A DNA stretch of 64,000 nucleotides from Candidatus Sulfotelmatobacter sp. (lineage in GTDB: Bacteria; Acidobacteriota; Terriglobia; Terriglobales; Acidobacteriaceae), in NCBI GenBank assembly GCA_035264195.1, contig DATFQQ010000217.1, positions 2,028 to 66,027 of the forward strand, in the 5' to 3' direction. Both the position numbers and the translations under genes were made by a program. The notes beneath the pieces were generated by a model. It searched no databases. It was not told the DNA's origin and worked only from the letters and a program-made list of their open reading frames with translations. Shown here in pieces: positions 1,912 through 54,939 of this stretch. The stretch's first letter is position 1, and the number at the start of each line of letters is the position of its first letter.

Positions 1912-1966
1912 ACTGTAATGTCGACGCAAAGTACAGAATCTACTTTCATTCAACACATTATTTCTT

Positions 1967-3742: not shown

Positions 3743-3835
3743 GACTGCGGCCTGTCTTAACGATCAGTAAAGGCAGGGTGTTGTGTTCCGGTGCGTCGCC
3801 CTCCCCCGGTTAAGGGCCCATCCGAGAAAAAGCTC

Positions 3836-3863
3836 TTGACATCGAGCGGGCATACTATATACA
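3836..3863 (+). promoter_or_regulatory. sigma70-like promoter TTGACA-N16-TATACA upstream of TBDR gene
   Basis: TTGACA at 3836-3841 and TATACA at 3858-3863. The same hexamers and spacing occur at 37373-37400 upstream of the second TBDR. Confidence 0.5.
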
Positions 3864-3876
3864 TATTATCCGTTCC

Positions 3877-3890
3877 AGTAAACGTTTTCT
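3877..3890. promoter_or_regulatory. LacI-type palindromic operator AGTAAACGTTTTCT
   Basis: Inverted repeat centred on CG at 3883-3884, about 20 nt downstream of the -10 element and 65 nt upstream of the TBDR start. One of nine related sites in the window. Confidence 0.6.
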
Positions 3891-3954
3891 CGCTGGAGCG
3901 AGTCCCTGACGTCCGGCCTTTTTAATTAAGACGCGCAATATTTGGGAGGCACCC

Positions 3955-7305: not shown

Positions 7306-7331
7306 CACAGGGACAACATCAACCAACCAAC

Positions 7332-7367
7332 CCGGCCGCCTCGCCAGAAGCGGCCGGCCCTCTTTTG
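7332..7367 (+). terminator. intrinsic terminator-like hairpin
   Basis: CCGGCCGC (7332-7339) pairs with GCGGCCGG (7350-7357) and is followed by CCCTCTTTTGT. It lies 27 nt after the TBDR stop. Confidence 0.55.
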
Positions 7368-7533
7368 TACGCCGTTGTGAATGCCGCGTTTGATCTCGGT
7401 GACTGGGCCTACGAGTTGGATTGCTTCGATTAGTATGTACGTGGCGCGTTCGAATGTTGTGGAGCATTGGACGCCAACTACAATCTTGGGCCCATACCAT
7501 TCAAAGCGATTTCAATGGTTGCGAAGCTGGCGG

Positions 7534-25825: not shown

Positions 25826-25830
25826 GTTTC

Positions 25831-26832: not shown

Positions 26833-26845
26833 TCCGTTGCCGGCA

Positions 26846-29312: not shown

Positions 29313-29326
29313 GGTAAGCGTTTACT
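29313..29326. promoter_or_regulatory. LacI-type operator GGTAAGCGTTTACT
   Basis: Centred on CG at 29319-29320, in the 148-bp divergent region between the MFS operon and the GH31 gene. A minus-strand TATAAT lies at 29296-29301 and a plus-strand TACAAT at 29345-29350. Confidence 0.55.
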
Positions 29327-29398: not shown

Positions 29399-31624
29399 AT
29401 GACCTCCCAATGGAACCGTCGAGACGTACTTCGAGGACTATCAGCAATGTCCGCTGCTGCATGCGTTCCGCTGAGCAAGGCTGCAGCTACAGACCAAGTA
29501 AATCCTCAGATTGAAATCCTAGTTACATCCGTGAGTGAACATACTCTGAGGCTGAGCCTTGTTCCGACAGTCAGCGCCGCCTCGAAGGCGATTCCAGCCA
29601 ATGGAGCGCTCATCAAAGAGTCTTGGGGTACTCCGATTCGAGCAAGTCAGAACGGAGGGCATGACATTGGAGTTGGTAAGTTCCGGCTCAAGATTTTATG
29701 GAGTCCGATTAACATCGCGATTGCCGACGCGCACGACAAGCTGATTCAACAATTTGAGTGGGACGCGAATACCGGGGCGCTTTCGTTTCTGACGGGAACA
29801 GGCCCTCTCCTCGGCTTGGGCGAAGGCGGACCGCAATTCGATCGACGCGGGTCGATCGATGCGATGCGCAGTGGGCAAGGTGGATACAAGCTCGCGACCC
29901 ATGGCGGGCGGGTTCCCATCCCATGGATCATCAGCACATCAGGGTGGGCAATCTTCGTCCATCAGCCATTCGGTACGTTCGACTTCACCGGGCCCCAAAG
30001 CAAATTTCTGCCGAAAAGTCACGATGCTGCACTTCCGCTCGATCTTTTTCTGGTCGCTTCTACTGAGCCAGCCACGCTCATGAGTGAGTATGCAAGGCTC
30101 ACCGGGCTCCCGGAGATGCCGCCGCTGTGGAGTTTTGGTTATCAGCAGTCGCACCGCACGTTGGCCAGCCGTGAAGAAGTCATTGCCGAAGCGAAGCTAT
30201 TCCGCGAAAAGAAGCTGCCATGCGATGCCATGATCTATTTAGGTACTGGATTCTGCCCTTCCGGATGGAATACAGAAAACGGGGCGTTCGACTGGAATCC
30301 ACGCGTTTTTCCCGATCCCAAAGAAGTGCTGGATGAGTTACATAAGGAGCACTTTCGTGCCGCAGTCCATGTTGTCATTCTCTCCGATTCGCTCCGCGGT
30401 ACCGTGCACGACAAATGTGAGTTGCTGCGGTTTGATGAGTCCCAGGCGAGCTGTTACTGGGATGCACATCGAAAAGACTTCGCGATGGGAATCGATGGGT
30501 GGTGGCCCGACGAAGGAGATCCGCTCGACATGGCGTCACGTTTAGTTCGCAATCGTATGTACTGGGAAGGACCGCAAATTGATCGTCCGAATGAGCGCCC
30601 CTACGCCCTGCATCGGAACGGATACGCCGGCATGCAGCGATACGCATCGTTCTTGTGGTCAGGCGACGTCTATTCCACGTGGGAGACTTTGAAGACTCAC
30701 ATTCCCATCGCTCTGAACACTGCTCTCAGCGGGATTCCATATTGGGGAACCGACATCGGAGGCTTTGTTCCCACGCCAGAATTCACGGCAGAGCTTTACG
30801 TTCGATGGTTCCAGTTCGGAGCATTCTGCCCACTTTTTCGTTGTCATGGTCGTACATGGAAACTCAGGCTGCCATGGGGATGGAACACGGGAGATCCGGG
30901 GCCGGTGGAGATCAGGAGCTACGACGGCGCCGCGATCCCTGACGCGAGCCAGCTTCACGACACCCGCGTCGAACCTATTTGCAGGAAATATCTCGAACTT
31001 CGCTACCGGATGTTGCCCTATCTGTACAGCACTGTGCGCGAAAGCGCCCTCACCGGAATGCCAATCATGCGAGCACTGTGGCTGCACTTTCCAGACGATC
31101 CGAAATCGGTCGAATGCCAGGATCAATACATGTGGGGCAAGAACCTGTTAGTGGCTCCGGTTGTCGAAAAGGGAGCGACCACGCGCCGCGTCTACCTTCC
31201 GCCAGGGAGTTGGTACGATTTCTGGACCGGCGAGCGCATTGACGGTGGCCATGAGATCAGCCGTCCGGTCGATTTGGAGACGATGCCTCTATACGTTCGC
31301 GCAGGATCGGTTCTGCCACTTGGTCCAGTCAGACAGTTCGTCGATGAGAAAGTTGACGGCCCACTGACGATTTCAATCTATCCCGGGGCAGACGCTTCGT
31401 TCCTGCTTTATGAAGACGATGGCATTTCATTCAACTATCGCAAAGGTGAGTGGATGGGCATTCAGATGACCTGGAACGATTCGAGCAAAATGTTGAATTT
31501 GGGGCTTGCCTCGGGCTCGCGGTTGATGCCTCCAGCGAAACGAACGATTGAGCTCCAGATGGGTGAAATCAAGAAGACGCTGAATTTTGATGGGAAGCCT
31601 GTTTCGATGTCGTCTGGACAATAA
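29399..31624 (+). CDS. GH31 alpha-glycosidase (alpha-xylosidase/alpha-glucosidase type)
   Basis: Signal-like N-terminus NRRDVLRGLSAMSAAACVPL. GH31 motifs are present: GIDGWWPDEGDP (nucleophile region), FLWSGDVYSTWETL, YWGTDIGGF. Confidence 0.9.
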   Translation: MTSQWNRRDVLRGLSAMSAAACVPLSKAAATDQVNPQIEILVTSVSEHTLRLSLVPTVSAASKAIPANGALIKESWGTPIRASQNGGHDIGVGKFRLKILWSPINIAIADAHDKLIQQFEWDANTGALSFLTGTGPLLGLGEGGPQFDRRGSIDAMRSGQGGYKLATHGGRVPIPWIISTSGWAIFVHQPFGTFDFTGPQSKFLPKSHDAALPLDLFLVASTEPATLMSEYARLTGLPEMPPLWSFGYQQSHRTLASREEVIAEAKLFREKKLPCDAMIYLGTGFCPSGWNTENGAFDWNPRVFPDPKEVLDELHKEHFRAAVHVVILSDSLRGTVHDKCELLRFDESQASCYWDAHRKDFAMGIDGWWPDEGDPLDMASRLVRNRMYWEGPQIDRPNERPYALHRNGYAGMQRYASFLWSGDVYSTWETLKTHIPIALNTALSGIPYWGTDIGGFVPTPEFTAELYVRWFQFGAFCPLFRCHGRTWKLRLPWGWNTGDPGPVEIRSYDGAAIPDASQLHDTRVEPICRKYLELRYRMLPYLYSTVRESALTGMPIMRALWLHFPDDPKSVECQDQYMWGKNLLVAPVVEKGATTRRVYLPPGSWYDFWTGERIDGGHEISRPVDLETMPLYVRAGSVLPLGPVRQFVDEKVDGPLTISIYPGADASFLLYEDDGISFNYRKGEWMGIQMTWNDSSKMLNLGLASGSRLMPPAKRTIELQMGEIKKTLNFDGKPVSMSSGQ

Positions 31625-31695
31625 GCGTGCGTTGCGGTTTCGGTGTCGGGGCCATGAGCGATATACTTCGTCACACAGTGCCTTTACCTTTCCTC

Positions 31696-32634
31696 ATGCG
31701 CGAACGGTCCCACGTTCTTAAACTTGTTATCGCTGTTACCTGCATTGCTCCTTTGATCGCCCACGGCCAGGTTGCGTCGAAAGCGACTTCCACTGGCGGT
31801 GGGGAAACAGCAGAACGCGGCATCGCCCTGGCATCCAAGGGACTGTGCAAGGAAGCGCTGCCGCTTCTCAAGAAGTCGGCACAGACTACCGACAAGAATC
31901 TGAGGTACGACGTGCTGATGGCGACGGCCCGGTGCGCGATGAGTCTCGATCAAACGGATACCGCGGTGAGGACTTTGCTCGAACTGAACCGTCTGTTTCC
32001 ACGGGATCCAGAAGTCCTTTTCAACACGACTCACTACTATTCAGACTTAGCATCAAGAGCGTCGCAAGAGCTGGCAGCGTCGGCGCCGACCTCGGCACAA
32101 GCGGAGCAACTTGAGGCAGAGTCTCTCGAGTCTCAAGGTGACCTGGATAAAGCTTCGACGGAATATCGAAAGATCCTTGAGCAATATCCTCAGCGCCGCG
32201 GAATTCATTATCGCCTGGGACGCCTTCTACTCTCCAAGAATCCTCCCGACGTAGAGAACGCAAAGAAAGAACTGAACGCGGAACTGAAGGCGGATCCAAA
32301 TAATGCCGCCGCGGAGTTCGTGCTCGGTGAGACCGCGCGCCAGGCGGGAGAGTGGGACGAGGCTGTTGGACATTTCTCCAGAGCATCTAAGATTGATGCA
32401 GGTTTTCAGGAAGCGTATCTCGCGATGGGAATGTCACTGAATTCTGCCGGACGATTTGGTGATGCGGTTGCGCCGCTCGAGACGTATGTGAAGATGCAGC
32501 CCGGAGATCCGGCGGGACACTATCAGCTCGGAACTGCGTACGCCCGCACCGGACACAAACAAGAGGCCCAGCGCGAAATGGCTCTCCAACAGCAGACCGC
32601 AGCTAAGAGCCCCGGCGCACCTCCGCAACCCTGA
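31696..32634 (+). CDS. secreted TPR protein
   Basis: ORF 31627..32634. ATG at 31696 gives [27 protein letters not shown]-like repeats follow. Its stop overlaps the next start (TGATG at 32632-32636). Confidence 0.8.
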
Positions 32635-34376
32635 TGAAATCCATGGTCCGGGGCCTGCCAAGATTTTTCCAACGTACTCTCTCTCGTCGTTCCTTCTTGC
32701 AATTGTTAGGTTCCGCCGGAGGGTTCGCTCTTGTTCCATCACTCCGTCCTGAATCCCTTCTGCCGAGCGCTGTACCTTCAGCGCCGTTCGAAGAAGTCCT
32801 CTCGTCCGCATCGGGAGTCACATGGGCCCACGTCAGCGGGCGCTCACCTATGGCCCACTTGCCGGAAACGGTGGGCGCAGGCTGCGCATTCTTTGACTAC
32901 GACAACGACGGCTGGATGGATATCTACCTGGTGAACAGCGGGCCGTGTGACTTCTATCAGCCATCGCCACCGCTACGCAACGCTCTCTACCGCAACAACC
33001 GCGACGGCACTTTCACCGACGTGACCCAACATGCAGGCGTACAGGGTAACGCGTATGGAATGGGCGTTGGAGTGGGTGATTATGACCGTGATGGTTTTCC
33101 GGACTTGTATGTCACGCAGTATCCCACCAGCATTCTGTACCATAACAACGGAGATGGAACTTTCACTGACGTCACTGCGAAGGCAGGCGTTGCCGCGCCA
33201 GGCTGGGCTACCAGCGCAGTATGGTTCGATTACGACAACGATGGCCGGCTCGACTTATTCGTAGGCCGCTTTGTCGATTACAGCAAAGAAAAGCTGAAAT
33301 TCTGCGGTGACTTGATCACCAAAGAACGGCACTATTGCATTCCCAGCATCTATGACCCGATGCCGTGTTGGCTCTTTCACAACAACGGAGATGGAACATT
33401 CACAGACGTGAGCAAAGAGTCTGGGATCGCGCAGGTTCGCGCCAAGGCTTGGGGCGTCGTTGCCGCCGACCTGAACAACGATGGCCGCATGGATCTGTAT
33501 GTCACGAACGATACGGTTCCGAATTTTCTCTTCGCCAATCGAGGCAAGGGAAAGTTCGAAGAGATCGGAATGGTAGCCGGTGTAGGTGTGAGCACATTCG
33601 GCAAGCCGCGGTCTGGAATGGGAGTAGACGCAGCCGACTACGATCAGGATGGCTGGATCGATCTGTTTGAGGCCAATGTCGATCAAGAAATGTATTCGCT
33701 CTACCACAACGATAAGGACGAGATCTTCACCGATGTTTCGAACCCGAACGGCATCGGCTTGGCCACGCGGTTGATGAGCGGGTGGGGATTGAAGTTTATC
33801 GACTACGACAATGACGGTGAAGTCGACTTGCTTTTGTGTAACGGGCATCCCGACGACTTAGTTGAAAAACGAACCGATCTTGTGAAGTTTCGGGAACCTA
33901 TGCTGCTTTTTCGGAATACCGGCAAGGGATTTGAAAACGTCAGCCAACAGAGTGGTCCTCTTTTTACGAGACCACTCGCCGCTCGAGGTTTGGCGCTAGG
34001 AGATTTCGACAACGATGGCGCGGTCGATCTGCTTATTTCTCAGAACAACGGTCCGCCTGTTCTTCTGCGAAACGTTGCTGGACGCGAGAATCACTGGCTT
34101 GGTCTTCGCTTGATCGGAACGAAGGCCAACATTGATGCAGTCGGTGCCAAGATCACCTATCAATCGGGCGATTGGCAGCGACACAAATACAAAGTCGGCG
34201 GAGGTAGTTATCTCTCGTCGCATGATTCTCGGGTCGTCTTGGGACTCGGTAAACACTCCAAGATCGATTGGCTGGAGGTTGACTGGCCACATCCAAGTGG
34301 CAAGAAGGAACGTGTTTCGGATCTTCCAATCGACCGGTACATCACGATCGTGGAAGGAGAAGGGAAGTGGAAGTAA
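32634..34376 (+). CDS. CRTAC1-family beta-propeller protein, Tat-exported
   Basis: Signal [14 protein letters not shown]. Same DxDxDG and [10 protein letters not shown] repeat architecture and UnbV/ASPIC tail ([11 protein letters not shown]...[10 protein letters not shown]) as 1967..3742. Confidence 0.9.
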
Positions 34377-34383
34377 GCTCCTA

Positions 34384-35568
34384 ATGGCTTTTGGAGAAGT
34401 TGCGATGAAGGTCGCATCCACAAATCGGCTGAGACTTCTGACGGTCCTATGTGTTTTGTGTCTCCCCTGCCAAACTCAAACCTCACTGCAAAGGCCACTT
34501 GGTTCTGGATCTGACCGCACACAGCAGCCAACTTACCCGAGCCAGCCTCAAGTGACGCAGGCAAGAGAAGAGCTGCAGAAGGGAACGGCTCTTACTCGAC
34601 AAGGTCGATTCAATGAAGCGATTCCGCATCTGTTGGCGGCTCAGAAGATCCTGCAAAACGAGTATGCCCTGCAGTTCAATCTCAGCCTCTGTTACGTGGG
34701 CGTGGGCGACTACAGCAGAGCAATCTCCGCATTGGATGGATTGCGCCGTCGTGGACACGATAATGCCAACGTGGAAAACTTGCTTGCACAGGCATACGTC
34801 GGAAACGGGCAGGATGCGGAAGCCCTCGCTGCTGTCGAACGCGCTGCATCGATTTCACCACAGGATGAGAAGCTGTTCACGTTCGTCGCCGATGCTTGCA
34901 TGGATCGCCAGGATTTTGAATTCGGTCTCAAAGTAATCGACTTGGGACTGGCAAAGTTTCCGCAATCGGCGCGGCTTCACTACGCGCGCGCAATGCTTTT
35001 GTCAGAGTTGGATCAGTTGGATCGGGCAAAAGAGGATTTTGCGCGGGCGAGCAAGCTTGGGCAGGGAAGTGAAGTCGGATATCTCGCGGCAGCCCAGCAA
35101 AAGATGTTTGAGGGCAGCATCAACGACGCGATTCAAATTGCCCGCGAAGGAATGAATAATGGAATCGAGGACTCAGCTCTACTCGAGATTCTGGGGAAAG
35201 CATTACTGCGTTCCGGAGTGATGCCGGGCCAAACAGAATTCAACGAGGCCCAGAGTGCATTGGAGAAATCGGTATCAGAACATCCAAACGATGCTGGCGC
35301 GCAAATCGCACTGGCCCAAGTCTATCTTCAGGCAGGTCGTTTCGACGATGCCATTGCACATCTGGACGTGGCGCAGCGGATGAGGCCCAACCAGCCTTCG
35401 ATCTATGCGAGCCTGGCGAAGGCTTATCAGCGGAAAGGCGACTCGCAGAGAGCCCAGGAAGCGCTTCAGAAACTTGAAGCTCTGAATCAGACGCAAGCCG
35501 AGCGAATTCGATCGGCACCAGGAGAGCGCAAGATGAGCTATGGAGGGAGTTCACCGGCTCCGCAGTGA
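34384..35568 (+). CDS. secreted TPR protein
   Basis: ORF 34132..35568, trimmed to the ATG at 34384 (or 34405), just after the CRTAC1 stop. Signal NRLRLLTVLCVLCLPCQTQ. TPR repeats follow. Confidence 0.8.
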   Translation: MAFGEVAMKVASTNRLRLLTVLCVLCLPCQTQTSLQRPLGSGSDRTQQPTYPSQPQVTQAREELQKGTALTRQGRFNEAIPHLLAAQKILQNEYALQFNLSLCYVGVGDYSRAISALDGLRRRGHDNANVENLLAQAYVGNGQDAEALAAVERAASISPQDEKLFTFVADACMDRQDFEFGLKVIDLGLAKFPQSARLHYARAMLLSELDQLDRAKEDFARASKLGQGSEVGYLAAAQQKMFEGSINDAIQIAREGMNNGIEDSALLEILGKALLRSGVMPGQTEFNEAQSALEKSVSEHPNDAGAQIALAQVYLQAGRFDDAIAHLDVAQRMRPNQPSIYASLAKAYQRKGDSQRAQEALQKLEALNQTQAERIRSAPGERKMSYGGSSPAPQ

Positions 35569-35571
35569 CTG

Positions 35572-37305
35572 TTAGCGGACCGTTGAAACTCTTGGGAACG
35601 GCCGGTCGATAATCCCGGTTCCTTCTTTGATCGCAACAATCTGGTCAGACTTGATGTGCTCAAGTTTCGTGTTCGCTCCGCTGGGCCAGATTATCTCAAG
35701 CAAATCAATCGATGAATGTTGGCCCAACCCGAAATGCAAGCGGGGATCCTGGGCCGATTGATAGCTCATCCCGCCCTTGCGCTGATCGTAGAGCACAAGA
35801 TCGCCGACAGTGACTTTGACTCGTGCTCCTACGCCGTCGCGATTCGACTTTGTTCCGATCAGGAAAATCTCCAGCCAATGGTTCTTATTGCCGCCATCAT
35901 TACGGAGCAGTTGTGGCGCCTGACCGCAGTTGTTGACGAGAATATCGAGATCGCCGTCGTTGTCGAAGTCTCCGACAGCCGCTCCTCGGCTGACCCGAGG
36001 TAGTTGAAAATCCGGGCCCAGATCGTCGCTGACGTTTTCGAAGATCCCGCGCCCCGCGTTACGGAACATCAGTTTGGGCTCGGCATACTTGACGTCCGCG
36101 TGATACCGCTCGACGTTATCGAGCACGTGGCCATTCGCCATGAATAGATCACGCCAGCCGTCATTGTCGTAATCCATAAAGCGTGCGCCGAACGTGCTGA
36201 TGTGATAAGTCGCATAGGAAAGCTTGGATCGGAATGTCGCATCTTCGAAGGTACCGTCGCCAAGGTTCTGATAGATGCGAGCCAGTTGCATATCGAGGTG
36301 CGCCACAATCAAATCCATGCGACCACTGCCTGTAGTATCAGCAGCATCTGTACCCATGCCTGCCTCGAACTGCCCGTCTGCGCTCACAGACACTCCCGCC
36401 GTGTAGCCCACTTCCCGGAATGTTCCGTCGTGATTGTTGTGGAAGAGGTAATTGGGCATGTGGTCGTTGGCGATGAAGATGTCTTGCCACCCGTCGTTGT
36501 CGTAGTCGAAGGTCACCACGCCGAGTCCGTTTCCACCCTTGAGTCCAAGTCCGGAAGTTTTGCTGACGTCGGTGAAAGTGCCGTCTCCATTGTTGTGGTA
36601 CAGAGTTGGTGGCTGACCGTGAAAATCGTCCGGATGACAGTAGCTGCGCATGCCCGGGCCACGATCCCCACAATAGAAATTGTGCTCCGGGGACCAGTCG
36701 ACGTAGTTGGCGATGATGAGATCGAGTTTGCCGTCGTTATCGTAGTCAAACCAGGCGGCGCTCGAAGCCCACAAGCCGGTGTTCTGCACACCTGCTCGCG
36801 CGGTCACGTCGGTAAAGGTGCCGTCTCCGTTGTTGTGGTAGAGAATGCATCGGCCGTACCCCAAGACCAGTAGGTCGGGGAACCCATCGTTGTCATAGTC
36901 TCCAACTGCCACTCCCATGCCGAAAAGTCCTTCGGCCCACACTCCAGCCTTCACCGTTACATCGGTGAAGGTGCCGTCTCCGTTGTTGCGATAAAGCGCG
37001 CTTCGAACCGGCTGTTGGGGGGTATAAACGCGGGTTGCGGCCCCGTTCACCAGGTAGAGATCGAGCAGACCGTTCTGGTCATAGTCAATCCACCCGCAGC
37101 CGGATCCCATGGTTTCAATCAGGTATTTCTCTGGGGATGCGGCATTGTCGTGATGAAAGGTGATGCCTGCAGACGAGGCGATGTCGGTGAACGTGACGCC
37201 CCTCTCGATCTTGGAATTGAACCAGGGCTGCGGAACAGCGACCACGAGCGAGGCGAATCCCATCTGTTTCAACAACTTACGTCGAGAAACCTTGGCCGTG
37301 TTCAC
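35572..37305 (-). CDS. CRTAC1-family beta-propeller protein, Tat-exported
   Basis: Signal MNTAKVSRRKLLKQMGFASLVVAV. Same repeat architecture and UnbV/ASPIC tail (RDGVGARVKV...QDPRLHFGLG) as the other two. Its stop is 3 nt from the convergent TPR stop. Confidence 0.9.
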   Translation of the reverse strand: MNTAKVSRRKLLKQMGFASLVVAVPQPWFNSKIERGVTFTDIASSAGITFHHDNAASPEKYLIETMGSGCGWIDYDQNGLLDLYLVNGAATRVYTPQQPVRSALYRNNGDGTFTDVTVKAGVWAEGLFGMGVAVGDYDNDGFPDLLVLGYGRCILYHNNGDGTFTDVTARAGVQNTGLWASSAAWFDYDNDGKLDLIIANYVDWSPEHNFYCGDRGPGMRSYCHPDDFHGQPPTLYHNNGDGTFTDVSKTSGLGLKGGNGLGVVTFDYDNDGWQDIFIANDHMPNYLFHNNHDGTFREVGYTAGVSVSADGQFEAGMGTDAADTTGSGRMDLIVAHLDMQLARIYQNLGDGTFEDATFRSKLSYATYHISTFGARFMDYDNDGWRDLFMANGHVLDNVERYHADVKYAEPKLMFRNAGRGIFENVSDDLGPDFQLPRVSRGAAVGDFDNDGDLDILVNNCGQAPQLLRNDGGNKNHWLEIFLIGTKSNRDGVGARVKVTVGDLVLYDQRKGGMSYQSAQDPRLHFGLGQHSSIDLLEIIWPSGANTKLEHIKSDQIVAIKEGTGIIDRPFPRVSTVR

Positions 37306-37372
37306 GAGTGCCTTCCAACGGGGCTGCTAAAGAGGGGTAACACATCTTGGAATGAGGGGCAAAATTTCATGG

Positions 37373-37400
37373 TTGACAACGGGACGGAATAAAGTATACA
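37373..37400 (+). promoter_or_regulatory. sigma70-like promoter TTGACA-N16-TATACA upstream of second TBDR
   Basis: TTGACA at 37373-37378 and TATACA at 37395-37400. Hexamers and spacing are identical to 3836-3863. Confidence 0.5.
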
Positions 37401-37414
37401 AAATCCCGCACTAG

Positions 37415-37428
37415 GGAAAACGTTTTCT
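37415..37428. promoter_or_regulatory. LacI-type operator GGAAAACGTTTTCT
   Basis: Centred on CG at 37421-37422, 21 nt after the -10 element, in the divergent CRTAC1/TBDR intergenic region. Confidence 0.6.
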
Positions 37429-37490
37429 GGCCGCCTCTGTTGGCGTATGCCGAGTCGGCTTGCAATTTCGCGACGTTGCAAGGAGGAGCT

Positions 37491-40400
37491 ATGACCTACC
37501 GTTTCGAAAAGACCTTTACCGTTACCGTCTGTCTGGAGATGGCTCTCGTTGCATTTCTGACTATGGTAGCGCCAAAGCTTTATGCGCAGCACGGCTCCGA
37601 GGGAACCGTCGCGGTTACGGTCTTGGACGCGAGTGGAAGCGTCGTTCCCGGCGCAGAGCTGGAATTGCAAGACCTAACCACGAACGACATCCGCAAGGCC
37701 GAAACCCAGGAAAATGGCACCTACGCGTTTGTCAACCTCGATCTGGGGAAGTACAAGCTTACGGTGAGTAAGACAGGCTTCAAGAGCAAGATATTCTCCG
37801 ACGTTTTAGTGCAAGCCGCAAAAACGACCGACATTAAGGCTCCACTTACGATTGGAGCAGTAGCCGAAACAGTGGAAGTCACGGCCGGTTCGGCACCTCT
37901 GGTTGAAACCACCACGAACGCTATAAGCACGACTGTGGATTTGAAGCAGATCGAGCAGTTGCCGATCCAAGGTCGAGATTTGACGCAACTGGCGAATATA
38001 GTCCCGGGATACACGGGAACTTGGGATGGCCTGCCATCCATTGCGCAAGGCAACAACATAGACGGCGTGATCGGGAGTACAAGCCGTATGAAGTTCGGTG
38101 GAAATGCAGAACCCAACGTGATGCCGCGTTTGGAAAACATCCAGGAGATGACGGTACAGACCGAGCAGTTGAATTTGGACCAGGGCTTTGGTCAGTCCAA
38201 CATGCAGATTAACTTCGTCACCCGCCGCGGCGGAAACGCGTTTCACGGCCGCGTATACGAAGACTTCCGCAACGCGGCGCTGAACGCAAACAGCTGGCTC
38301 AACGACAACGCAGGCTTAAGCAAGAACCCACTCATCCTCAACGAATTTGGCGGAAGCGTGGGCGGACCGATCATCAAGGACAAATTGTTCTTCTTTGGTA
38401 CTTTCGCCATGGGCAAACAACCCGGCTCGATTAATGCGCACAACTACGTCTTCACTCAGGCAGCGCAGAGCGGATTGTTTTCGTACAGTGGTGGCACACT
38501 AAATCTTTTTGCCTTGGCGGCCGCCTGTAATGCAGATCCTATTAACTGCTCCAAAGGGCAGACCTTGCCCACCGCGGTGTTGTCGGATGGAAGCGGCAAC
38601 ACTGCCCCGAACGGCTCAAATTCCCCCGCTGAGGTGTTAGCCTCAATCAACGCCTCGGTCAAATACGGAGCCCTCACACCCAATGCCAACGGTGACGCGA
38701 ACATTCAGCAACTGAACTGGCTGGTAAATGCGCCGATCACCCACTACTGGCCGACCGTTCGCGTGGACTACGATGCGACTGCAAAGTTGCGATTCAATTT
38801 CGCCTGGAATATGACGAAAGACAACTTCGTCAACCAGAACACTCCGGATTTCCCCGGGCCAGCTTGGGCCAAGACAGGAGCCGGAAACAGGGACAAGAAT
38901 TACACCGCCGCGTTCGGGTTTGATTGGACTCTTTCTCCGACAATGGTCAACGAATTTCGCGGCGGCTTTCTCTATAACTCGAACGTTGGAGCTTACAACG
39001 CTCCGCCGTTGCAGCAGAACCAGCCTCAGCTTGGATGGAATTACACCTCCGTGGGGTATCCCTATGGTGCTGAGCAGTCAGGCACTGTCTTCTACACCGG
39101 GATCAACACATACTATCCAGTGTTCAATGCGTCAGACACGGTGACGTGGCAGCACCGCGCCCACACTATGAACTTCGGCTTCTCCTGGTGGCGCGAGCAG
39201 GATCACTACTACAATCCGGTGCTGGGATATCCAGTCGTCAACTTCGGGTTGGCAGGTGGCGATCCCGCTCAAAATGCCTTTCCACTTTCCGCATTTGGCG
39301 GGGACTCTGGGGCCCAAGCTGCCGCTCAGCAGCTTTATGCCATCTTGACCGGGCGGATCCAGGGCGTGAATGGGAGTTACTCGTTTAGCCCTTCGCAAAA
39401 TCAATATGTGCCGGCAATTGGCCGCTATAACCTCAACGAGTTGGAGAAGGCCTGGGGAGTATTTTTTCAGGATTCCTTCCGCGTCCGGCCAAACCTGACG
39501 GTCAATTATGGGCTGCGCTGGGACTTCACAAGCGCTGATAAGGATCTGAGCAAGCTGTATCACTCCGCCAGCGCGTCGTCGGTCTGGGGTCCTTCAGGCG
39601 TCAACAACCTGTTCAATCCTGGTTCGCTGAAGGGTAACATGGATCCGCAAATCGCCCAGATCAGCCAAGCGTACAACGACTGGAACGTGTCTCCGCAGCC
39701 GGCACTGGGAATTGCATGGAACCCTAAGTTCGAGAGTGGCTTTCTGAGTAAGCTGACGGGAGTTGACAAGACGGTCATTCGTGCGGGCTACTCCCTACGC
39801 AAGTTTACTGAGCCGCAGCAATATGTATGGAATCAGGCATCCGATTTCGCGTCGTTCTACTATCAAAGCTTTTTCCTGAACGCCAATACCGCCGCAGGGG
39901 CGGGAAGTTTCGCTCCGGGAAGCCTGACCATCGCCAACTTTGACTCCAGTCTGACGGGAGCCGCGGCAGTGAATGCTTTTGGTACTCCGTATGGACTTTC
40001 ACCCAAGAGTTTCCTTAAGACTGAATCAGCGTCAGACTTTACGTTCTTGGGAGGGCCGGGGCTGAATGGAATCCCATACAACATTCAGCAGCCCTATACC
40101 CAGTCATGGAACCTGGGCATTCAGCGAGCGCTGGGCGATACCCGAGCCCTGGAGATTCGGTACGTTGGGAGTCGCACCTTGCGGCAGTGGATTCAGACTG
40201 ATCCCAATGAGGTCAACATCTTCGAAAATGGATTTCTGACGCAGTTCAAACAGGCGCAGGCGAATCTCAACGCCAACAACGCGAGTGGGAACCCAAGTTA
40301 CGCGGGGAACTTTGCCAACCATGGCCTGCCGGGCCAGGGTGCACTTCCCATCTTTGCCGCCGCTTTCGTGGGAGGAAGCGAGTTCGCGCCGGCGTGCGCC

Positions 40401-41528
40401 GATGGAAGTGCCGCCGACTATTGCAATGGCCAATTCATCAGTCAATTGCAGAACGGCGCTGCTGGCGGGATGGCGGAGACGTTAGCAAATATTCAAGGCG
40501 CGGCCCCGTATTTCTGCAATCTGGTGGGATCGTCTTTCGCTCCCTGTGCCAACAACATCGGCTTTACCGGAGCGGGAGCTGGATACCCGATCAATTTCTT
40601 CCAGGCGAACCCGTACGCAGCTCAGACGGGCTTCACCAATGCAGTAAGCACCACGCTCTCGCAAGCCGAGGGATATTCGAATTACAACGCGCTCCAGGTG
40701 GATTTTCGTCAGCGCTCATGGCACGGGCTTCAGTTCGATGCCAACTACACGTGGAGCCATACCCTCGGCATCGCCAGTCAAAACAATTGGGTGGCGTCGT
40801 CAAATATCTTTACCTTGCGGAATATGCACTTGACTTACGGTCCTGCGCTCTTCGATCTACGCCATGTGGTCAACATCAATGGCACTTATGACCTGCCCTT
40901 TGGCAAAGGAAAAATGTTTGCCAATCGCGGTGGTGTCGTAAATCAGATCGTTGGCGGTTGGACGGTAGGGACGATCTTTACATTCCAGAGTGGAACGCCA
41001 TTTCTTCTGGGGTCCAATGTGCAATACAACCCCAATCTCACGTTTAACGATTACGGAGACGCCGGCGTTGTCCTGAACGGTGTCAGTCGCTCCCAACTGC
41101 AAAGCGCAGTAGGCAAATATTCCATTGCCGGAACCCCCTCTGTAGCATTCATCAATCCGAAGTACCTGTCTCCGGGCGGTGGGGCAAATTCCACGTACAT
41201 CACGCAGAACACGACTCCGGGCACCATTGGCCAAAGAGTCTGGCTCTACGGACCGCACGCCACCTATGACGACATATCCATCTCCAAGAACTTCCCAATT
41301 ACCGAAAGAGTACGTTTCCTCTTTCAGACGGAGTTGCTAAACGCCTTCAACCATCCGGTGTTTGGACCTGGGGCAGGCAATGGCGGGACGTACGGGAATT
41401 TTCAGAATGGGTTCAGCTCAAATGTGAACTCCAGTGGCTTTGGAATTGGGACTGGACCTCTCAATCCCAATTTCTTGCCAACAGGTGGTGCTCGCCTGAT
41501 CGAACTCCGGGGCAACATCGAGTTCTGA
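37491..41528 (+). CDS. TonB-dependent outer-membrane receptor with carboxypeptidase-regulatory-like domain (1345 aa)
   Basis: ORF 37440..41528. The ATG at 37491 is preceded by AAGGAGG. Signal ...MVAPKLYAQ. CarboxypepD_reg-like domain (VAVTVLDASGSVVPGAELELQDLTTN...NGTYAFVNLDLGKYKLTVSKTGF). C-terminal ...ELRGNIEF. Confidence 0.9.
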   Translation: MTYRFEKTFTVTVCLEMALVAFLTMVAPKLYAQHGSEGTVAVTVLDASGSVVPGAELELQDLTTNDIRKAETQENGTYAFVNLDLGKYKLTVSKTGFKSKIFSDVLVQAAKTTDIKAPLTIGAVAETVEVTAGSAPLVETTTNAISTTVDLKQIEQLPIQGRDLTQLANIVPGYTGTWDGLPSIAQGNNIDGVIGSTSRMKFGGNAEPNVMPRLENIQEMTVQTEQLNLDQGFGQSNMQINFVTRRGGNAFHGRVYEDFRNAALNANSWLNDNAGLSKNPLILNEFGGSVGGPIIKDKLFFFGTFAMGKQPGSINAHNYVFTQAAQSGLFSYSGGTLNLFALAAACNADPINCSKGQTLPTAVLSDGSGNTAPNGSNSPAEVLASINASVKYGALTPNANGDANIQQLNWLVNAPITHYWPTVRVDYDATAKLRFNFAWNMTKDNFVNQNTPDFPGPAWAKTGAGNRDKNYTAAFGFDWTLSPTMVNEFRGGFLYNSNVGAYNAPPLQQNQPQLGWNYTSVGYPYGAEQSGTVFYTGINTYYPVFNASDTVTWQHRAHTMNFGFSWWREQDHYYNPVLGYPVVNFGLAGGDPAQNAFPLSAFGGDSGAQAAAQQLYAILTGRIQGVNGSYSFSPSQNQYVPAIGRYNLNELEKAWGVFFQDSFRVRPNLTVNYGLRWDFTSADKDLSKLYHSASASSVWGPSGVNNLFNPGSLKGNMDPQIAQISQAYNDWNVSPQPALGIAWNPKFESGFLSKLTGVDKTVIRAGYSLRKFTEPQQYVWNQASDFASFYYQSFFLNANTAAGAGSFAPGSLTIANFDSSLTGAAAVNAFGTPYGLSPKSFLKTESASDFTFLGGPGLNGIPYNIQQPYTQSWNLGIQRALGDTRALEIRYVGSRTLRQWIQTDPNEVNIFENGFLTQFKQAQANLNANNASGNPSYAGNFANHGLPGQGALPIFAAAFVGGSEFAPACADGSAADYCNGQFISQLQNGAAGGMAETLANIQGAAPYFCNLVGSSFAPCANNIGFTGAGAGYPINFFQANPYAAQTGFTNAVSTTLSQAEGYSNYNALQVDFRQRSWHGLQFDANYTWSHTLGIASQNNWVASSNIFTLRNMHLTYGPALFDLRHVVNINGTYDLPFGKGKMFANRGGVVNQIVGGWTVGTIFTFQSGTPFLLGSNVQYNPNLTFNDYGDAGVVLNGVSRSQLQSAVGKYSIAGTPSVAFINPKYLSPGGGANSTYITQNTTPGTIGQRVWLYGPHATYDDISISKNFPITERVRFLFQTELLNAFNHPVFGPGAGNGGTYGNFQNGFSSNVNSSGFGIGTGPLNPNFLPTGGARLIELRGNIEF

Positions 41529-41856: not shown

Positions 41857-44166
41857 ATGAACTCCAGCATCCGCTTCCTGATCGCCGCTTGCGTTCTTGC
41901 GCTGCTCGCGTCGCCTCGTTTACCCGCCCAAGGCACGCTCCAGGACTATCAGCGAGCGCAGCAATTTCTTCCTGGCAATCTTCGCCATATCGTCCACCTT
42001 GCGGAGGTCAATCCTCGCTGGATCGAGAAATCCAGCCGCTTCTGGTATCGCAAGTCTGCGCCCAGCGGTTCTGAATTCATTCTCGTGGACGCCGAGCATA
42101 ACACCAGTGGTCCGGCGTTCGATCACTCTCGTTTGGCAGATGCCCTCTCCCATGCCGCTAAGCAGGAATACCCGCCATCGGATTTGCCCTTCCGGGAGTT
42201 CGACTTCGTGGATGACGGCAAGGGAATTCGGTTTTCGATCGACGGTGCCGAGTGGACTTGTTCCATCGTCAACTATGACTGCAAGAAAAATTCCTCTGAA
42301 TCCAAACGCCCGAATGAAGAACTCTCCCCAAACAAGCGGTGGGCTGCTTTTGTAAGAGACCACAACTTGTTCTTGAGGGATACTTCTACCGGCACCGAGT
42401 TGCAGCTTACGCAGGACGGAGTTGCGGGATGGGACTACGCCACTCCTCTGCCATCGTTGCGCCTGATGGTGGATCAGGGCACAGAAGATGTTAAGCAGCC
42501 CGCCGCGGTCTTCTGGGCGCCTGACTCTTCAAAGCTGGTCACGTATCGGATCGATTCCCGAAACTCGGGACGCTTCACCAGTCTGCAATTCGTTCCTCCA
42601 AATCAGTTGCGGCCCAAAGCATTCACTTACGTTTACCCTCTTCCAGGTGAGGTGTTGGCTAAGGCCGAGCCGATCATATTTGACATTCAATCTGGCCGTC
42701 GGATCGATGTGAAAGACGCCTCGATCGAATTGCCATTTCAAGATGGCCCAGGCTTCGAGTGGTTTCCTGACAGCAAGAGCTTTTACTACGACTACGACGA
42801 GCGCGGCTACAAGGCCAAAGAACTCCGCATTGTGGATGCTTCAACCGGTGAACAAAAACTTGTGATTCGCGAGCAGGCGGATACCTACGTGGATCCCGGC
42901 GAGACGTTCTATCGATTTGTGAAGGGAACAGGTGAGGTTCTGTGGGGTTCAGAGCGAGATGGTTGGGATCACCTCTACCTTTACGGCAAAACCGGGCAAC
43001 TCGAAAACCAGCTCACGCAGGGCGACTGGGTGGTCCGGCAGATTGAGCATGTAGACGAAGCAAATCGACGTGTGTATTTCTCTGCCAGTGGGCGCGAAAA
43101 GGGCGAGGATCCTTATCAAGCGCATCTTTACAGAGTTGGGTTTGATGGTAAGGGGCTGCAGTTGCTCACGGCCGAGAATGCGAACCACTCCATCGACTTC
43201 TCGCCCGACGGTTCGTACTTCATCGATGGATATTCTCGTCCTGATTTGCCCGACAAAATCGTCCTTCGCCGCGCCAAGGACGGTTCAGAGGTTCGCATGC
43301 TGGAAGAGTCAGATCCCAGCCCGTTAACCAAAATGGGATGGAAAGCGCCCGAACCTTTCCGGGGAAAAGCCTCCGATGGTACGACCGATTTATACGGGCT
43401 CGTCTGGCGTCCGTCGAACCTCGATACGTCGAAAAAATATCCGATCGTCGAGTTTGTCTATACAGGGCCACAATCGTTCTTTGTCCCAAAGACGTTTAGC
43501 ACTTTCTGGCTGCAGTCGATGTCCGAGCTGGGATTTGTCGTCGTGATGGTTGACGGCCGGGGCACAGCTGGGCGCTCACGAGCTTTTCACCAGTTCTCCT
43601 ATAGAAATCTGGGAGGCGCATTCGAAGATCACGTTGCCATGATCAAGCAGATGGCGGCCAAGTATCCATACATGGATATTGAACGCGTGGGAATCTTCGG
43701 AACCTCGGCGGGCGGTTATGGCGCAGCACATGCCATGCTCGCGTTCCCAGACTTCTACAAAGTCGGTGTCACTACTTCAGGGGATCACGACGCGCGTCTC
43801 GATAAGGCTTGGTGGAACGAACTGTACCAGGGATATCCGGTGCAAGATGACTACGTGCAGCAGTCCAATGTCACGATGGCCAGTCGTTTGAAAGGACATC
43901 TGCTCATCGAGCACGGCGATATCGACGATAACGTTCATCCGGTCGAGACAATGCGGTTGGTTGATGCTCTGATGAAGGCCAATAAAGATTTCGACATGCT
44001 GTTTGTGCCCAATATGTTTCACGGAGAGAGTGGGGAACACGCTCCTTACCTAGTCCGTCGGCGGTGGGATTACTTCGTAAAGTATTTGCTTGGCGTTACA
44101 CCGCCGGCCAACTTCGAAGTCAAAGAAGACCGGGAAGGGCGTAATCCTCGAAGGCGTCGTCGTTAG
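41857..44166 (+). CDS. S9 family serine peptidase, dipeptidyl-peptidase IV type (prolyl-specific)
   Basis: Sec signal MNSSIRFLIAACVLALLASPRLPAQG. DPP-IV-like N-terminal propeller. C-terminal alpha/beta hydrolase domain with nucleophile elbow GIFGTSAGGYG, then GDHD and EHGDIDDNVH. Confidence 0.9.
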   Translation: MNSSIRFLIAACVLALLASPRLPAQGTLQDYQRAQQFLPGNLRHIVHLAEVNPRWIEKSSRFWYRKSAPSGSEFILVDAEHNTSGPAFDHSRLADALSHAAKQEYPPSDLPFREFDFVDDGKGIRFSIDGAEWTCSIVNYDCKKNSSESKRPNEELSPNKRWAAFVRDHNLFLRDTSTGTELQLTQDGVAGWDYATPLPSLRLMVDQGTEDVKQPAAVFWAPDSSKLVTYRIDSRNSGRFTSLQFVPPNQLRPKAFTYVYPLPGEVLAKAEPIIFDIQSGRRIDVKDASIELPFQDGPGFEWFPDSKSFYYDYDERGYKAKELRIVDASTGEQKLVIREQADTYVDPGETFYRFVKGTGEVLWGSERDGWDHLYLYGKTGQLENQLTQGDWVVRQIEHVDEANRRVYFSASGREKGEDPYQAHLYRVGFDGKGLQLLTAENANHSIDFSPDGSYFIDGYSRPDLPDKIVLRRAKDGSEVRMLEESDPSPLTKMGWKAPEPFRGKASDGTTDLYGLVWRPSNLDTSKKYPIVEFVYTGPQSFFVPKTFSTFWLQSMSELGFVVVMVDGRGTAGRSRAFHQFSYRNLGGAFEDHVAMIKQMAAKYPYMDIERVGIFGTSAGGYGAAHAMLAFPDFYKVGVTTSGDHDARLDKAWWNELYQGYPVQDDYVQQSNVTMASRLKGHLLIEHGDIDDNVHPVETMRLVDALMKANKDFDMLFVPNMFHGESGEHAPYLVRRRWDYFVKYLLGVTPPANFEVKEDREGRNPRRRRR

Positions 44167-46558: not shown

Positions 46559-46601
46559 ATTAGGGCTGTATTGTGTACATGTAAAGAAGGGGTGGTCGAC
46601 G

Positions 46602-47741
46602 ATGAAATCCAGATTCTTGATCGTCTTTTTATTGACAATAGCATGCAGCGCGATGGCTGCCGATTCCACGTTAGCCGCGACTCCGCCAATGGGCTGGAAC
46701 AGCTGGAACCACTTTGCCTGCAAAGTGGCGGCCGACGATGTTCGCGCAGCCGCCGATGCTATCGCCAGTAACGGGATGAAGGACGCCGGCTATGTTTACG
46801 TCAATATCGACGACTGCTGGCAGGGAGATCGCGACGTGCAGGGCAGGATTCGACCCAACGCAAGGTTTCCCGACATGAAAGGCTTGGTGGACTACATTCA
46901 CAGCAAAGGATTGAAAGCTGGTATTTACTCTTCGCCGGGACCGAAAACGTGCGCCAAATACGAAGGCAGCTATCAGCACGAAGAGCTAGACGCGCAGCAA
47001 TACGCCGAGTGGGGATTCGACTACCTTAAATACGACTGGTGCAGCGCAGAGAGGGTCTATCAGCACAGTGACATGATCGCGGTGTACAAGAAAATGCATG
47101 ACGCGCTCGTCCGTACTGGACGGCCGATCGTTTTCAGTTTGTGTCAGTACGGCTATGAACGAGTGTGGCGCTGGGGGGCATCAGTCGGGGGCAACTTATG
47201 GCGCACGACAGAAGACATCAACGATCACTACGACCGGATGTCGGTCATTGGATTCGACCAGAATGGGTTAGAGTCATTCGCTGGAGCGGGACACTGGAAT
47301 GACCCCGACATGCTTGAAGTGGGAAACGGCGGGATGAATCACGACGAATATATTACCCACATGAGTCTTTGGGTCTTGCTCGCTGCGCCGCTGTTGGCAG
47401 GGAATGATCTGTCAAAAATGAGCCAGGAGACATTGGACATCCTCACCAATAAGGAGGTGGTTGCGGTCGATCAGGATTTGAAAGGGCAGCAAGGACGCCG
47501 CGTCGCACAAGAAGGTCCGCTGGAGGTGTGGGCGAAACCTCTCGCTGACGGCTCGGTTGCGGTTGGCCTGTTCAATCGTGGCGAATCAGTGAATCCAATT
47601 ACGGTCAATTTGAAAGATATCGGATTTCGGAAGCAAGTCCAGGTTCGTGACCTGTGGCAGCACAAGAGCTTGGGATCTTTTGAGGGAAGTTTTACGGCGC
47701 AAGTTCCGCGTCACGGTGCCGTTCTCGTGAAGGTGCAGTAG
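46602..47741 (+). CDS. GH27 alpha-galactosidase, secreted
   Basis: ORF 46509..47741, trimmed to the ATG at 46602 (signal MKSRFLIVFLLTIACSAMA). GH27 motifs are present: PPMGWNSWNHF, VNIDDCWQ, YLKYDWC (nucleophile Asp), WNDPDMLEVGN. Confidence 0.9.
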   Translation: MKSRFLIVFLLTIACSAMAADSTLAATPPMGWNSWNHFACKVAADDVRAAADAIASNGMKDAGYVYVNIDDCWQGDRDVQGRIRPNARFPDMKGLVDYIHSKGLKAGIYSSPGPKTCAKYEGSYQHEELDAQQYAEWGFDYLKYDWCSAERVYQHSDMIAVYKKMHDALVRTGRPIVFSLCQYGYERVWRWGASVGGNLWRTTEDINDHYDRMSVIGFDQNGLESFAGAGHWNDPDMLEVGNGGMNHDEYITHMSLWVLLAAPLLAGNDLSKMSQETLDILTNKEVVAVDQDLKGQQGRRVAQEGPLEVWAKPLADGSVAVGLFNRGESVNPITVNLKDIGFRKQVQVRDLWQHKSLGSFEGSFTAQVPRHGAVLVKVQ

Positions 47742-49688: not shown

Positions 49689-49695
49689 CTTGGAT

Positions 49696-54925: not shown

Positions 54926-54939
54926 AGTAAACGTTTGCC
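54926..54939. promoter_or_regulatory. LacI-type operator AGTAAACGTTTGCC
   Basis: Centred on CG at 54932-54933. It ends only 12 nt before the GH127-like start codon and begins 11 nt after the hairpin. Confidence 0.5.

Follow-up and report, generated by a model that had tools for sequence, protein, structure and literature searches.

In the polysaccharide utilization loci (PULs) of Bacteroidota, a TonB-type transporter with a carboxypeptidase-regulatory-like N-terminal domain (SusC) is followed by a helical-repeat partner (SusD) and surface glycan-binding proteins, and this core, surrounded by glycosidase genes and a regulator that responds to sugar, recurs with differing sets of enzymes. The CUT loci of Xanthomonas and Caulobacter, reportedly carbohydrate utilization loci with TonB-dependent transporters, combine a TonB-type receptor with an inner-membrane major facilitator superfamily (MFS) transporter, glycosidases, and a LacI-type repressor whose operator stands before the units. 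Acidobacteriota are among the most abundant soil bacteria, their capture of plant polymers is poorly understood, and to our knowledge they are without SusD-type partners for their many TonB-type receptors. Here we describe a gene cluster, module 2, in a 64,000-nucleotide stretch of the genome of an uncultured Candidatus Sulfotelmatobacter (contig DATFQQ010000217.1, positions 2,028 to 66,027; hereafter the window), in which genes for tetratricopeptide-repeat (TPR) proteins and for beta-propeller proteins of the CRTAC1/ASPIC-UnbV family lie beside a receptor gene. The region is the core of a LacI-controlled carbohydrate-utilization locus around a TonB-type receptor. The TPR and CRTAC1 genes make up a pair that is conserved, in many cases coupled in translation, and in some cases fused, and that in Acidobacteriota stands very often directly behind a receptor gene.

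The locus works like a PUL, with a comparable putative receptor, a helical-repeat partner, and a core set among glycosidases and a regulator, but it lacks the SusD and SusC family signatures: neither a SusD/RagB lipoprotein nor a SusC/RagA signature was found. It also comes from a different phylum, its propeller proteins carry twin-arginine translocation (TAT) signals, and its canonical TPR partners carry Sec signals and are not lipoproteins. Sec-type TPR proteins and a TAT-exported propeller, with no lipoproteins among them, make a periplasmic location more likely than a surface one. The locus fits the CUT type, as the window holds two putative receptors (3955 and 37491), an MFS transporter, a LacI-family regulator, glycoside hydrolase (GH) enzymes, and a common operator. 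CUT loci, however, are not known to be defined by a TPR-CRTAC1 pair, which here is the most conserved partner of the receptor. Our literature search, which covered work readable without subscription, found no published description of a TPR-CRTAC1 cassette, with or without a receptor, and no functional description of CRTAC1, ASPIC, or UnbV in connection with TonB, SusD, polysaccharide, or Acidobacteria; one paper holds an unrelated neighborhood note on ASPIC/UnbV (PMC12758564).

The conserved unit and its operator

Gene and family assignments were based on the open reading frames (ORFs) of the window and on Pfam scans, with NCBIfam scans of selected proteins. A plus-strand string opens with a GH31 gene (29399..31624, +), whose product has a twin-arginine-type N-terminus, a TIM-barrel catalytic domain (Pfam Glyco_hydro_31_2nd, E = 3e-61), and C-terminal domains (E = 1e-31), and whose closest solved relatives are alpha-xylosidases (E = 4e-83). 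TPR_c follows (312 residues; 31696..32634, +), with matches to Pfam TPR families and a Sec-type signal peptide without a lipobox; its ORF opens at 31627 and has an ATG at 31696. CRTAC1_b (580 residues; 32634..34376, +), a TAT-signal beta-propeller with Pfam FG-GAP_3 and UnbV_ASPIC matches, overlaps TPR_c in a TGATG (TGA at 32632-32634, ATG at 32634-32636) and is separated by 7 nt from TPR_d (394 residues; 34384..35568, +; Pfam TPR), which starts with the ATG at 34384. CRTAC1_c (577 residues; 35572..37305, -), assigned by Pfam and likewise carrying a TAT signal, converges on TPR_d and diverges from receptor_b, a TonB-dependent-receptor-like outer-membrane protein of 1345 residues (37491..41528, +; Pfam CarboxypepD_reg and OMP_b-brl_4) that has AAGGAGG just 5' of its ATG at 37491. 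The stop codons of TPR_d (35568) and CRTAC1_c (35572) have 3 nt between them and no terminator-like structure was detected there, so that transcripts from the two strands would overlap. Behind the receptor stand a DPP-IV-type S9 peptidase with a signal peptide (41857..44166, +; Pfam DPPIV_N and Peptidase_S9), a conserved 783-residue TAT-signal protein without family assignment (44207..46558, +), and a GH27 alpha-galactosidase-family enzyme (46509..47741, +; Pfam Melibiase_2, E = 1e-67) whose true start is probably downstream of 46509. The gap between receptor_b and the peptidase (41529-41856) is unusually long at 328 nt, the orthologous gaps being 41-122 nt; it holds a degenerate AAACGTT core only (GCCAAACGTTAAAT) and no full operator.

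For comparison, a scan of one genome per species gave 597 CRTAC1-encoding stretches, and the best 80 loci of these 597 were surveyed (numbered L001 and upward). Most of them belong to Terriglobia, Blastocatellia, Vicinamibacteria, Bryobacteraceae, and Pyrinomonadaceae, with Poribacteria also present; L038, assigned to 'Clostridia', is probably mis-binned. Gene calls in the survey were crude, being longest ORFs with over-extended starts and labels from BLAST or phmmer. In Ca. S. kueseliae and several related metagenome-assembled genomes, the arrangement of module 2 recurs at about 80% protein identity: TPR-CRTAC1-TPR, a convergent CRTAC1, a divergent receptor, and behind the receptor a DPP-IV-type S9 peptidase, then a protein of roughly 787 residues. 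Orthologues about 80% identical to CRTAC1_b bear the name of Ca. Sulfotelmatobacter (Terriglobia, Acidobacteriota). Those of TPR_c (46-71% identity) lie directly 5' of CRTAC1_b orthologues, also in the receptor>TPR>CRTAC1 triads of L017 and L021, and those of TPR_d (43-55%; L001, L005-L009, L060) and CRTAC1_c (73-84%) keep their positions as well, while an S9 peptidase stands behind the receptor in L001-L006 and L009. The conserved unit is thus TPR_c-CRTAC1_b-TPR_d, the convergent CRTAC1_c, and receptor_b with the S9 peptidase and the 783-residue protein. GH31 adjoins the TPR string solely in this genome; relatives have an opposite-strand GH127 or DUF885 gene 5' of the TPR gene in its place. 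Ca. S. kueseliae lacks it, whereas in L001/L005, L006, L007, L009, and L057 it is found at differing places no more than 10 kb from the cassette; GH31 is thus a recurrent neighbor of varying position and not part of the core. In other genera (L010, L012-L014, L017, L021), CRTAC1_b-type pairs stand in the canonical receptor>TPR>CRTAC1 triad, and module 2 is therefore a rearranged derivative of the triad that has been conserved in related genera.

The same four families occur a second time in module 1 (289..8991, +), where Pfam assigned TPR_a (289-1911, +; probable start near 421), CRTAC1_a (1967-3742, +), receptor_a (3955-7305, +), and TPR_b (7381-8991, +). Across the two modules, the CRTAC1 proteins have 39-43% identity, the TPR proteins about 25%, and the receptors 20-27%. 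Over all CRTAC1 paralogs the range is 39-48%; the closest paralogs lie within a module (TPR_a/TPR_b and CRTAC1_b/CRTAC1_c, both 48%), and TPR_c and TPR_d each head a separate orthologue series.

An earlier note, made from the letters of the window, had taken module 2 to span 29399-41528, beginning with GH31, and to be a second, rearranged copy of the gene set. All its genes were found again where it had placed them, by ORF list and Pfam; the TGATG overlap and the 7-nt gap can be read in the sequence, CRTAC1_c does converge on the TPR string and diverge from the receptor, and both operator copies that it listed (29313-29326 and 37415-37428) are present. Its outline of the module holds for the core genes, but the unit reaches at least to 46558, taking in the S9 peptidase and the 783-residue protein that the note had omitted, and excludes GH31. 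Likewise, the families do recur in module 1, with GH31 outside the conserved core, but a duplicated module was not borne out, since the nearest paralogs are inside the modules. We rejected a recent duplication of module 1 on the strength of the 20-43% identities between the two.

A shared operator was also proposed in that note, and it proved real. A scan of both strands with GGWAARCGTTTWCT (up to two mismatches, 100 shuffles) gave 14 strand matches at nine distinct sites, against 1.87 strand matches expected, and none of the 100 shuffles reached 14; all nine sites are intergenic in a window that is 6.6% intergenic. The consensus GGWAAACGTTTWCY is a palindrome of about 14 bp with a central CG. 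One copy, GGTAAGCGTTTACT (29313..29326), lies between the divergent MFS and GH31 genes, 73 nt from the start of GH31, where it overlaps a weak -35-like hexamer that was not significant; another, GGAAAACGTTTTCT, is a perfect 12-nt palindrome between CRTAC1_c and receptor_b (37415..37428). A third, GGAAAACGTTTTCC (22100-22113), lies 57 nt 5' of the start of the sole LacI-family gene within the window (20973..22043, -; Pfam LacI and Peripla_BP_3, NCBIfam RbsR/PurR-like), whose product is the candidate repressor for the operator. Sites of the GTAAACGTTTnC type were found between the CRTAC1_c and receptor orthologues of L001, L002, L005, L006, L009, and L060, and 5' of the receptor in L008, L055, and L057. 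With palindromic sites before its units and before the LacI gene, and with the CRTAC1_c/receptor copy kept in orthologous loci, the locus is, judged from its sequence, a LacI-type regulon. Through the operator, both modules are connected to three GH127 genes, GH51, an FGGY kinase, and arabinose-catabolic genes. Promoter and terminator scans gave signals not above shuffled background, and an Rfam scan of the whole window found no RNA family.

The TPR-CRTAC1 pair across genomes

In the 80 loci, a TPR gene of the same direction directly precedes 35 of 108 CRTAC1 genes, and 14 of these 35 pairs overlap by 4 or 1 nt. Of the 30 cases that no contig end truncates, 17 have a receptor gene directly 5' of the TPR gene(s), so that receptor > TPR > CRTAC1 is the commonest layout. 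Counting both sides, a TPR gene adjoins 60 of 110 CRTAC1 genes, and for 51 of the 110 a receptor lies no more than three genes away; against a background of 3.9% per family, the binomial p is about 1e-22. We also considered whether unlabelled genes 5' of CRTAC1 might be cryptic TPR genes and rejected this, as they encode GH3, GH29, GH16, FGE-sulfatase, PQQ dehydrogenase, and other proteins.

Fusions provide stronger evidence than co-divergence. Five ORFs in the survey loci join TPR repeats to FG-GAP/UnbV_ASPIC, TPR repeats are present in 7 of 10 long representatives of the CRTAC1 family (six N-terminal, one C-terminal), and further fusions were found among homologues of a distant representative. 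Co-divergence was assessed by Mantel tests on pairwise distances (2000 permutations), with 37 pairs of CRTAC1 and adjacent TPR and 13 triads with a receptor. The correlations were r = 0.61 for CRTAC1 and adjacent TPR (37 pairs), r = 0.53 for CRTAC1 and receptor (13 triads), and r = 0.84 for TPR and receptor (13 triads), with 0 of 2000 permutations reaching the value in each case; they show inheritance as units, not contact, and species history common to the partners contributes to them. The claim of functional coupling rather than chance adjacency was thus upheld by enrichment, fusions, and the co-divergence that the earlier note had proposed to look for among the paralogous partners. The stop/start overlap between TPR and CRTAC1 recurs widely, also in distant genomes. 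Among three distant large genomes, TPR genes flank CRTAC1 in all, with 4-nt overlaps in two and a receptor-like gene nearby in one only. Given these fusions and distant pairs, mostly without a receptor, the TPR-CRTAC1 pair is the older unit; in Acidobacteriota a link to the receptor is common without being universal. Its recurrence across the phylum and its occasional fusion mark the pair as a real but uncharacterized functional unit. The CRTAC1 family comprises 13,528 clusters at 50% identity (E <= 1e-30). In Bacteroidota, ASPIC/UnbV proteins may be encoded next to SusC/SusD; a homologue search that started from a tandem-propeller representative gave no proteins that could be identified as coming from Bacteroidota.

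The three CRTAC1 proteins of the window have an N-terminal FG-GAP/VCBS beta-propeller (Pfam FG-GAP_3, E = 3e-56, 3e-54, and 7e-58) and a C-terminal UnbV_ASPIC domain (E = 2e-15, 3e-20, and 2e-19, for 32634-34376, 35572-37305, and 1967-3742, respectively); an NCBIfam scan gave no match to them. This is the CRTAC1/ASPIC-UnbV architecture of vertebrate cartilage acidic protein 1 (CRTAC1) and of proteins annotated as UnbV or 'enediyne biosynthesis protein E4'. Murine CRTAC1 (9etn) was a PDB sequence match of CRTAC1_b (E = 8e-19) and the top Foldseek match of its AlphaFold2 model (pLDDT 84, pTM 0.86), over the full length with E = 8e-30 and a TM-score of 0.69-0.73. Unlike the vertebrate protein, to which identity is about 20%, those of bacteria are exported by TAT and occur in pairs or fusions with TPR proteins; an EGF domain is present in vertebrate CRTAC1, whereas no EGF-domain Pfam match was obtained for the CRTAC1 proteins of the window. 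The next Foldseek neighbors were GlcNAc-binding fungal propeller lectins, ITFG2, aldos-2-ulose dehydratase, integrin alpha, the PL11 lyase YesW, and Bap1. The fungal lectins PVL and AAL2, YesW, and aldos-2-ulose dehydratase, the next-best structural neighbors of CRTAC1_b, are integrin-like, Ca-binding beta-propellers that act on carbohydrates, but they lack UnbV_ASPIC and their TM-scores to it are only 0.35-0.47, which gives no basis for specificity or activity. CRTAC1_b has seven DxDxDG-type motifs in its propeller, and most residues that are invariant among paralogs and homologues fall in the recurring DxDxDG and NNxDGTF motifs; two cysteines are invariant as well. The CRTAC1 N-termini carry a twin-arginine motif, SRRxFL, that is nearly invariant in the alignment, and no lipobox.

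CRTAC1-type propellers are also fused to AhpC/TSA-redoxin, FGE-sulfatase, a region with CXXCH cytochrome motifs, and PpiC rotamase domains (L056:3578-7402; P0350, P0328, P0430), and genes for FGE-sulfatase and PQQ dehydrogenase occur as upstream neighbors of CRTAC1. Together with the two invariant cysteines, the redox-type fusions and neighbors give a hint of a redox-linked role in some subfamilies.

The TPR partners carry Sec signals that end in AxA-Q, of the signal-peptidase-I type, with a lipobox-like string in only 2 of about 36 N-termini, and TPR_c has weak, sub-threshold similarity to YbgF, PilW, and BepA-type models. Both receptors match Pfam OMP_b-brl_4 (E = 4.5e-126 for 37491-41528; 7e-100 for 3955-7305), and TonB-box-like strings (ETVEV, ESVVV), a plug-start motif (LPIxGR[DN]L...PG), and a terminal F can be read directly in them; in receptor_b these are ETVEV and LPIQGRDL..PGY. 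A phmmer search of both receptors against the PDB gave no match, and a profile of 27 relatives gave weak matches only, to the TonB-dependent receptors YncD and PqqU (E ~0.003). By sequence, the receptors are thus far from any solved transporter.

Proposed role of the pair and alternative explanations

With somewhat better than even confidence, we favor a role in which the exported TPR-CRTAC1 pair acts with the TonB-type receptor, forming a periplasmic complex that would bind, and perhaps process, an incoming oligosaccharide or glycopeptide and pass it on. The TPR protein would be exported via Sec and the Ca-motif-rich CRTAC1 propeller separately via TAT, and the two would assemble in the periplasm. 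There, the complex would bind the oligosaccharide or glycopeptide that enters through the receptor and, perhaps after processing, pass it on to glycosidases of the periplasm, to the peptidase, and to the MFS transporter. The pair would then be a periplasmic counterpart of accessory proteins in other TonB-dependent uptake systems. Recurrent overlaps and natural fusions, the latter in the sense of a Rosetta stone, plausibly fit a physical TPR-CRTAC1 complex; the stoichiometric complex suggested in the earlier note is plausible. A more specific proposal can be entertained tentatively, though we regard it as doubtful: that TPR-CRTAC1 is a new two-protein, periplasmic, Ca-dependent glycan-binding or glycan-processing module, the signature accessory unit of acidobacterial TonB-dependent glycan and glycopeptide uptake and the counterpart of SusD plus surface glycan-binding proteins, which in this locus would serve to import hydroxyproline-rich, beta-L-arabinofuranosylated fragments of plant cell-wall glycoproteins.

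Several observations weigh against the role that we favor. About 45% of CRTAC1 genes are without an adjacent TPR gene, about half are without a nearby receptor, and the distant pairs mostly lack one, so that the receptor link may be lineage-specific wiring and not an obligate partnership. The orthologous loci among the 80 are not independent observations. A physical interaction of TPR, CRTAC1, and receptor is a prediction from the genes, and the putative receptors are assigned by Pfam OMP_b-brl_4 and short motifs, Pfam Plug having no match at E < 0.01. The Foldseek neighbors of the CRTAC1_b model do not separate binding from catalysis, and the redoxin, FGE-sulfatase, cytochrome, and PQQ dehydrogenase fusions or neighbors hint at a different chemistry. 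No operator was found 5' of the TPR_c orthologues in L001, L002, L006, L009, and L060; the copy at 29313 therefore belongs to the GH31/MFS arrangement of this genome, and we rejected it as a conserved element before the TPR string.

The strongest competitor, to which we would still give distinctly less credence than to its denial, holds that the CRTAC1 propellers are periplasmic enzymes, either Ca-dependent lyases or dehydratases or redox-linked glycan modifiers, with TPR as a specificity or scaffolding subunit and the receptor merely as substrate supplier. Aldos-2-ulose dehydratase and the PL11 rhamnogalacturonan lyase YesW among the structural neighbors would suit such an enzyme, as would the two invariant cysteines, the redox-type fusions and neighbors (cytochrome c among them), and TAT export, which the GH31, GH127, and 783-residue enzymes of the locus share; several paralogs per locus would also be expected of enzymes that differ in specificity. 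The family, however, has no known catalytic motif, no CAZy-type family was matched in the Pfam and NCBIfam scans, lectins are the best structural matches outside CRTAC1 itself, and the repeated DxDxDG and NNxDGTF motifs account for most of the invariant residues. A true Sus-like PUL core at the cell surface, with TPR as a SusD-like surface lid and CRTAC1 as a surface glycan-binding protein, is already disfavored and seems to us very improbable. SusD is itself a TPR-like helical protein, the order receptor > TPR mirrors susC > susD, receptor_b carries a SusC-like CarboxypepD_reg N-terminal domain, and TPR and receptor have the strongest co-divergence. None of the four TPR proteins of the window, however, matched a SusD_RagB or SusD-like Pfam family, and an NCBIfam scan of both receptors gave no SusC/RagA model (TIGR04056-type). 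We rejected the TPR proteins as SusD homologues for want of such a match and because of their signal-peptidase-I signals, and the CRTAC1 proteins are TAT substrates without a lipobox.

Gram-negative envelopes hold other pairs of a propeller and a TPR protein, BamB/BamD and TolB/CpoB, and by analogy with these the pair might serve the envelope or the receptor itself, in folding and insertion, in TonB-related energy coupling, or in envelope maintenance. The sub-threshold similarities of TPR_c, the family member fused to PpiC-type rotamase domains, and the genomes in which the pair occurs without a receptor would all be in keeping with this, which we nevertheless think improbable: the pair is placed under a LacI operator, and genomes carry many divergent paralogous pairs in sugar-regulated loci with different glycosidase sets, as fits substrate-specific and not housekeeping roles. 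The recurrence could, finally, be a product of chance, if expanded TPR, CRTAC1, and receptor families often came to be adjacent, or of a recent duplication of module 1. These are indeed large families, as the cluster count of CRTAC1 shows, and a published list of paralog families expanded in Ca. Solibacter usitatus includes those of ASPIC/UnbV and of the TonB receptors (PMC3174227). Adjacency of 32-55% against 3.9% per gene, together with the fusions, refutes chance neighborhood; co-divergence and recurrent start/stop overlaps add to this, the identities between the modules exclude a recent duplication, and module 2 has been kept as a unit across genera. We give this last explanation practically no weight.

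If the periplasmic TPR-CRTAC1 complex is borne out, a co-regulated, co-diverging, and sometimes fused accessory pair would offer a genomic marker for acidobacterial glycan-uptake loci and a first function for the very large bacterial CRTAC1/ASPIC-UnbV family. It would also provide an experimental handle on more than 13,000 clusters without known bacterial function, in a family that includes the vertebrate CRTAC1 homologue. The regulon itself, with GH127, GH51, GH27, GH31, a DPP-IV-type peptidase, hydroxyproline catabolism, and a glycosidase-like protein, is a compact candidate system for degrading glycoproteins of the extensin/arabinogalactan-protein type in peat and soil.

Glycan context and other features of the window

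The glycan genes of the window include three GH127 genes, GH51, GH39, GH31, GH27, DUF5695, an aldose epimerase, an MFS transporter, an FGGY kinase, and sugar and hydroxyproline catabolic genes. GH127 and GH121 enzymes (HypBA1 and HypBA2) link such gene content to beta-L-arabinofuranosylated glycans, and a beta-L-arabinofuranosylated plant glycan is the likely substrate by this reasoning. Hydroxyproline-rich glycoprotein fragments are possibly the form in which it is taken up, and the gene content makes them an attractive candidate. Among the closest described systems is the hypBA gene set of Bifidobacterium longum (GH127 HypBA1, GH121 HypBA2), which acts on hydroxyproline-linked beta-L-arabinooligosaccharides. 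The window resembles it in having three GH127 genes under a common operator, GH27, a post-proline-type peptidase, a hydroxyproline catabolic set, and a 783-residue protein that resembles GH127/GH146/GH121-type barrels. It differs in its Gram-negative, receptor-based uptake; no GH121 was identified in the window, and the substrate is read from gene content only. Seventeen triads outside the group of module-2 orthologues have other neighbors (Glycoamylase, GH20, GH3, GH116, glucokinase, ROK, and GntR/UTRA regulators), so that the cassette appears to be an uptake core that is redeployed with enzymes specific to each substrate.

Besides the three operator copies described above, sites lie before TPR_a (382-395), before receptor_a (3877-3890), 5' of GH127_a past the AKR stop (11049), between the divergent AKR and GH51 genes (12375), before the FGGY kinase (20848), and before GH127_c (54926..54939). 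The MFS transporter (28015-29250, -) is divergent from GH31. It belongs to a minus-strand string (24947-29250) that also encodes an MR_MLE-type dehydratase, an FAH-like protein, and a HIBADH-type dehydrogenase and that shares the operator at 29313 with GH31; the string looks like a non-phosphorylative sugar-acid route, possibly for L-arabinonate.

A GntR regulator and a complete-looking hydroxyproline catabolic set lie at 47772-54881 and are followed by an operator-preceded GH127 gene. The set comprises a Pro_racemase-type epimerase, DAO, Pyr_redox, a DHDPS-type enzyme, and an aldehyde dehydrogenase; it is complete beside the module-2 orthologue in L008, and only DAO and the epimerase stand beside the cassette in L017. 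Immediately 5' of the LacI gene is a gene for a 933-residue DUF5695 protein (22134-24935; E = 0), and DUF5695 genes recur near GH127, GH27, GH31, and the cassette in L015, L055, and L057. A GFO/IDH/MocA oxidoreductase, a BNR-repeat protein, a ROK kinase, and the C-terminal part of a GH38 mannosidase-family protein (58534-63975) appear to form a separate glycan locus without the operator.

The 783-residue protein of the conserved unit had no Pfam or NCBIfam match but has 1648 homologues. Its AlphaFold2 model (pLDDT 63) consists of a beta-sandwich, an (alpha/alpha)6-like barrel, and another beta-sandwich, and the best Foldseek matches were GH78, GH146, GH127, and GH121-type enzymes, at low TM-scores. 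On this model, it is probably an uncharacterized (alpha/alpha)6-barrel glycosidase and a candidate for a new glycoside hydrolase family; a relationship to DUF5695 was rejected, as the two have no similarity. The protein co-occurs with GH31, DUF5695, and TPR/CRTAC1 genes in L007, L015, and L057. A protein 100% identical to it (P0121) is encoded on a 49,991-bp JGI metagenome contig, so that the window is essentially present in public metagenome data.

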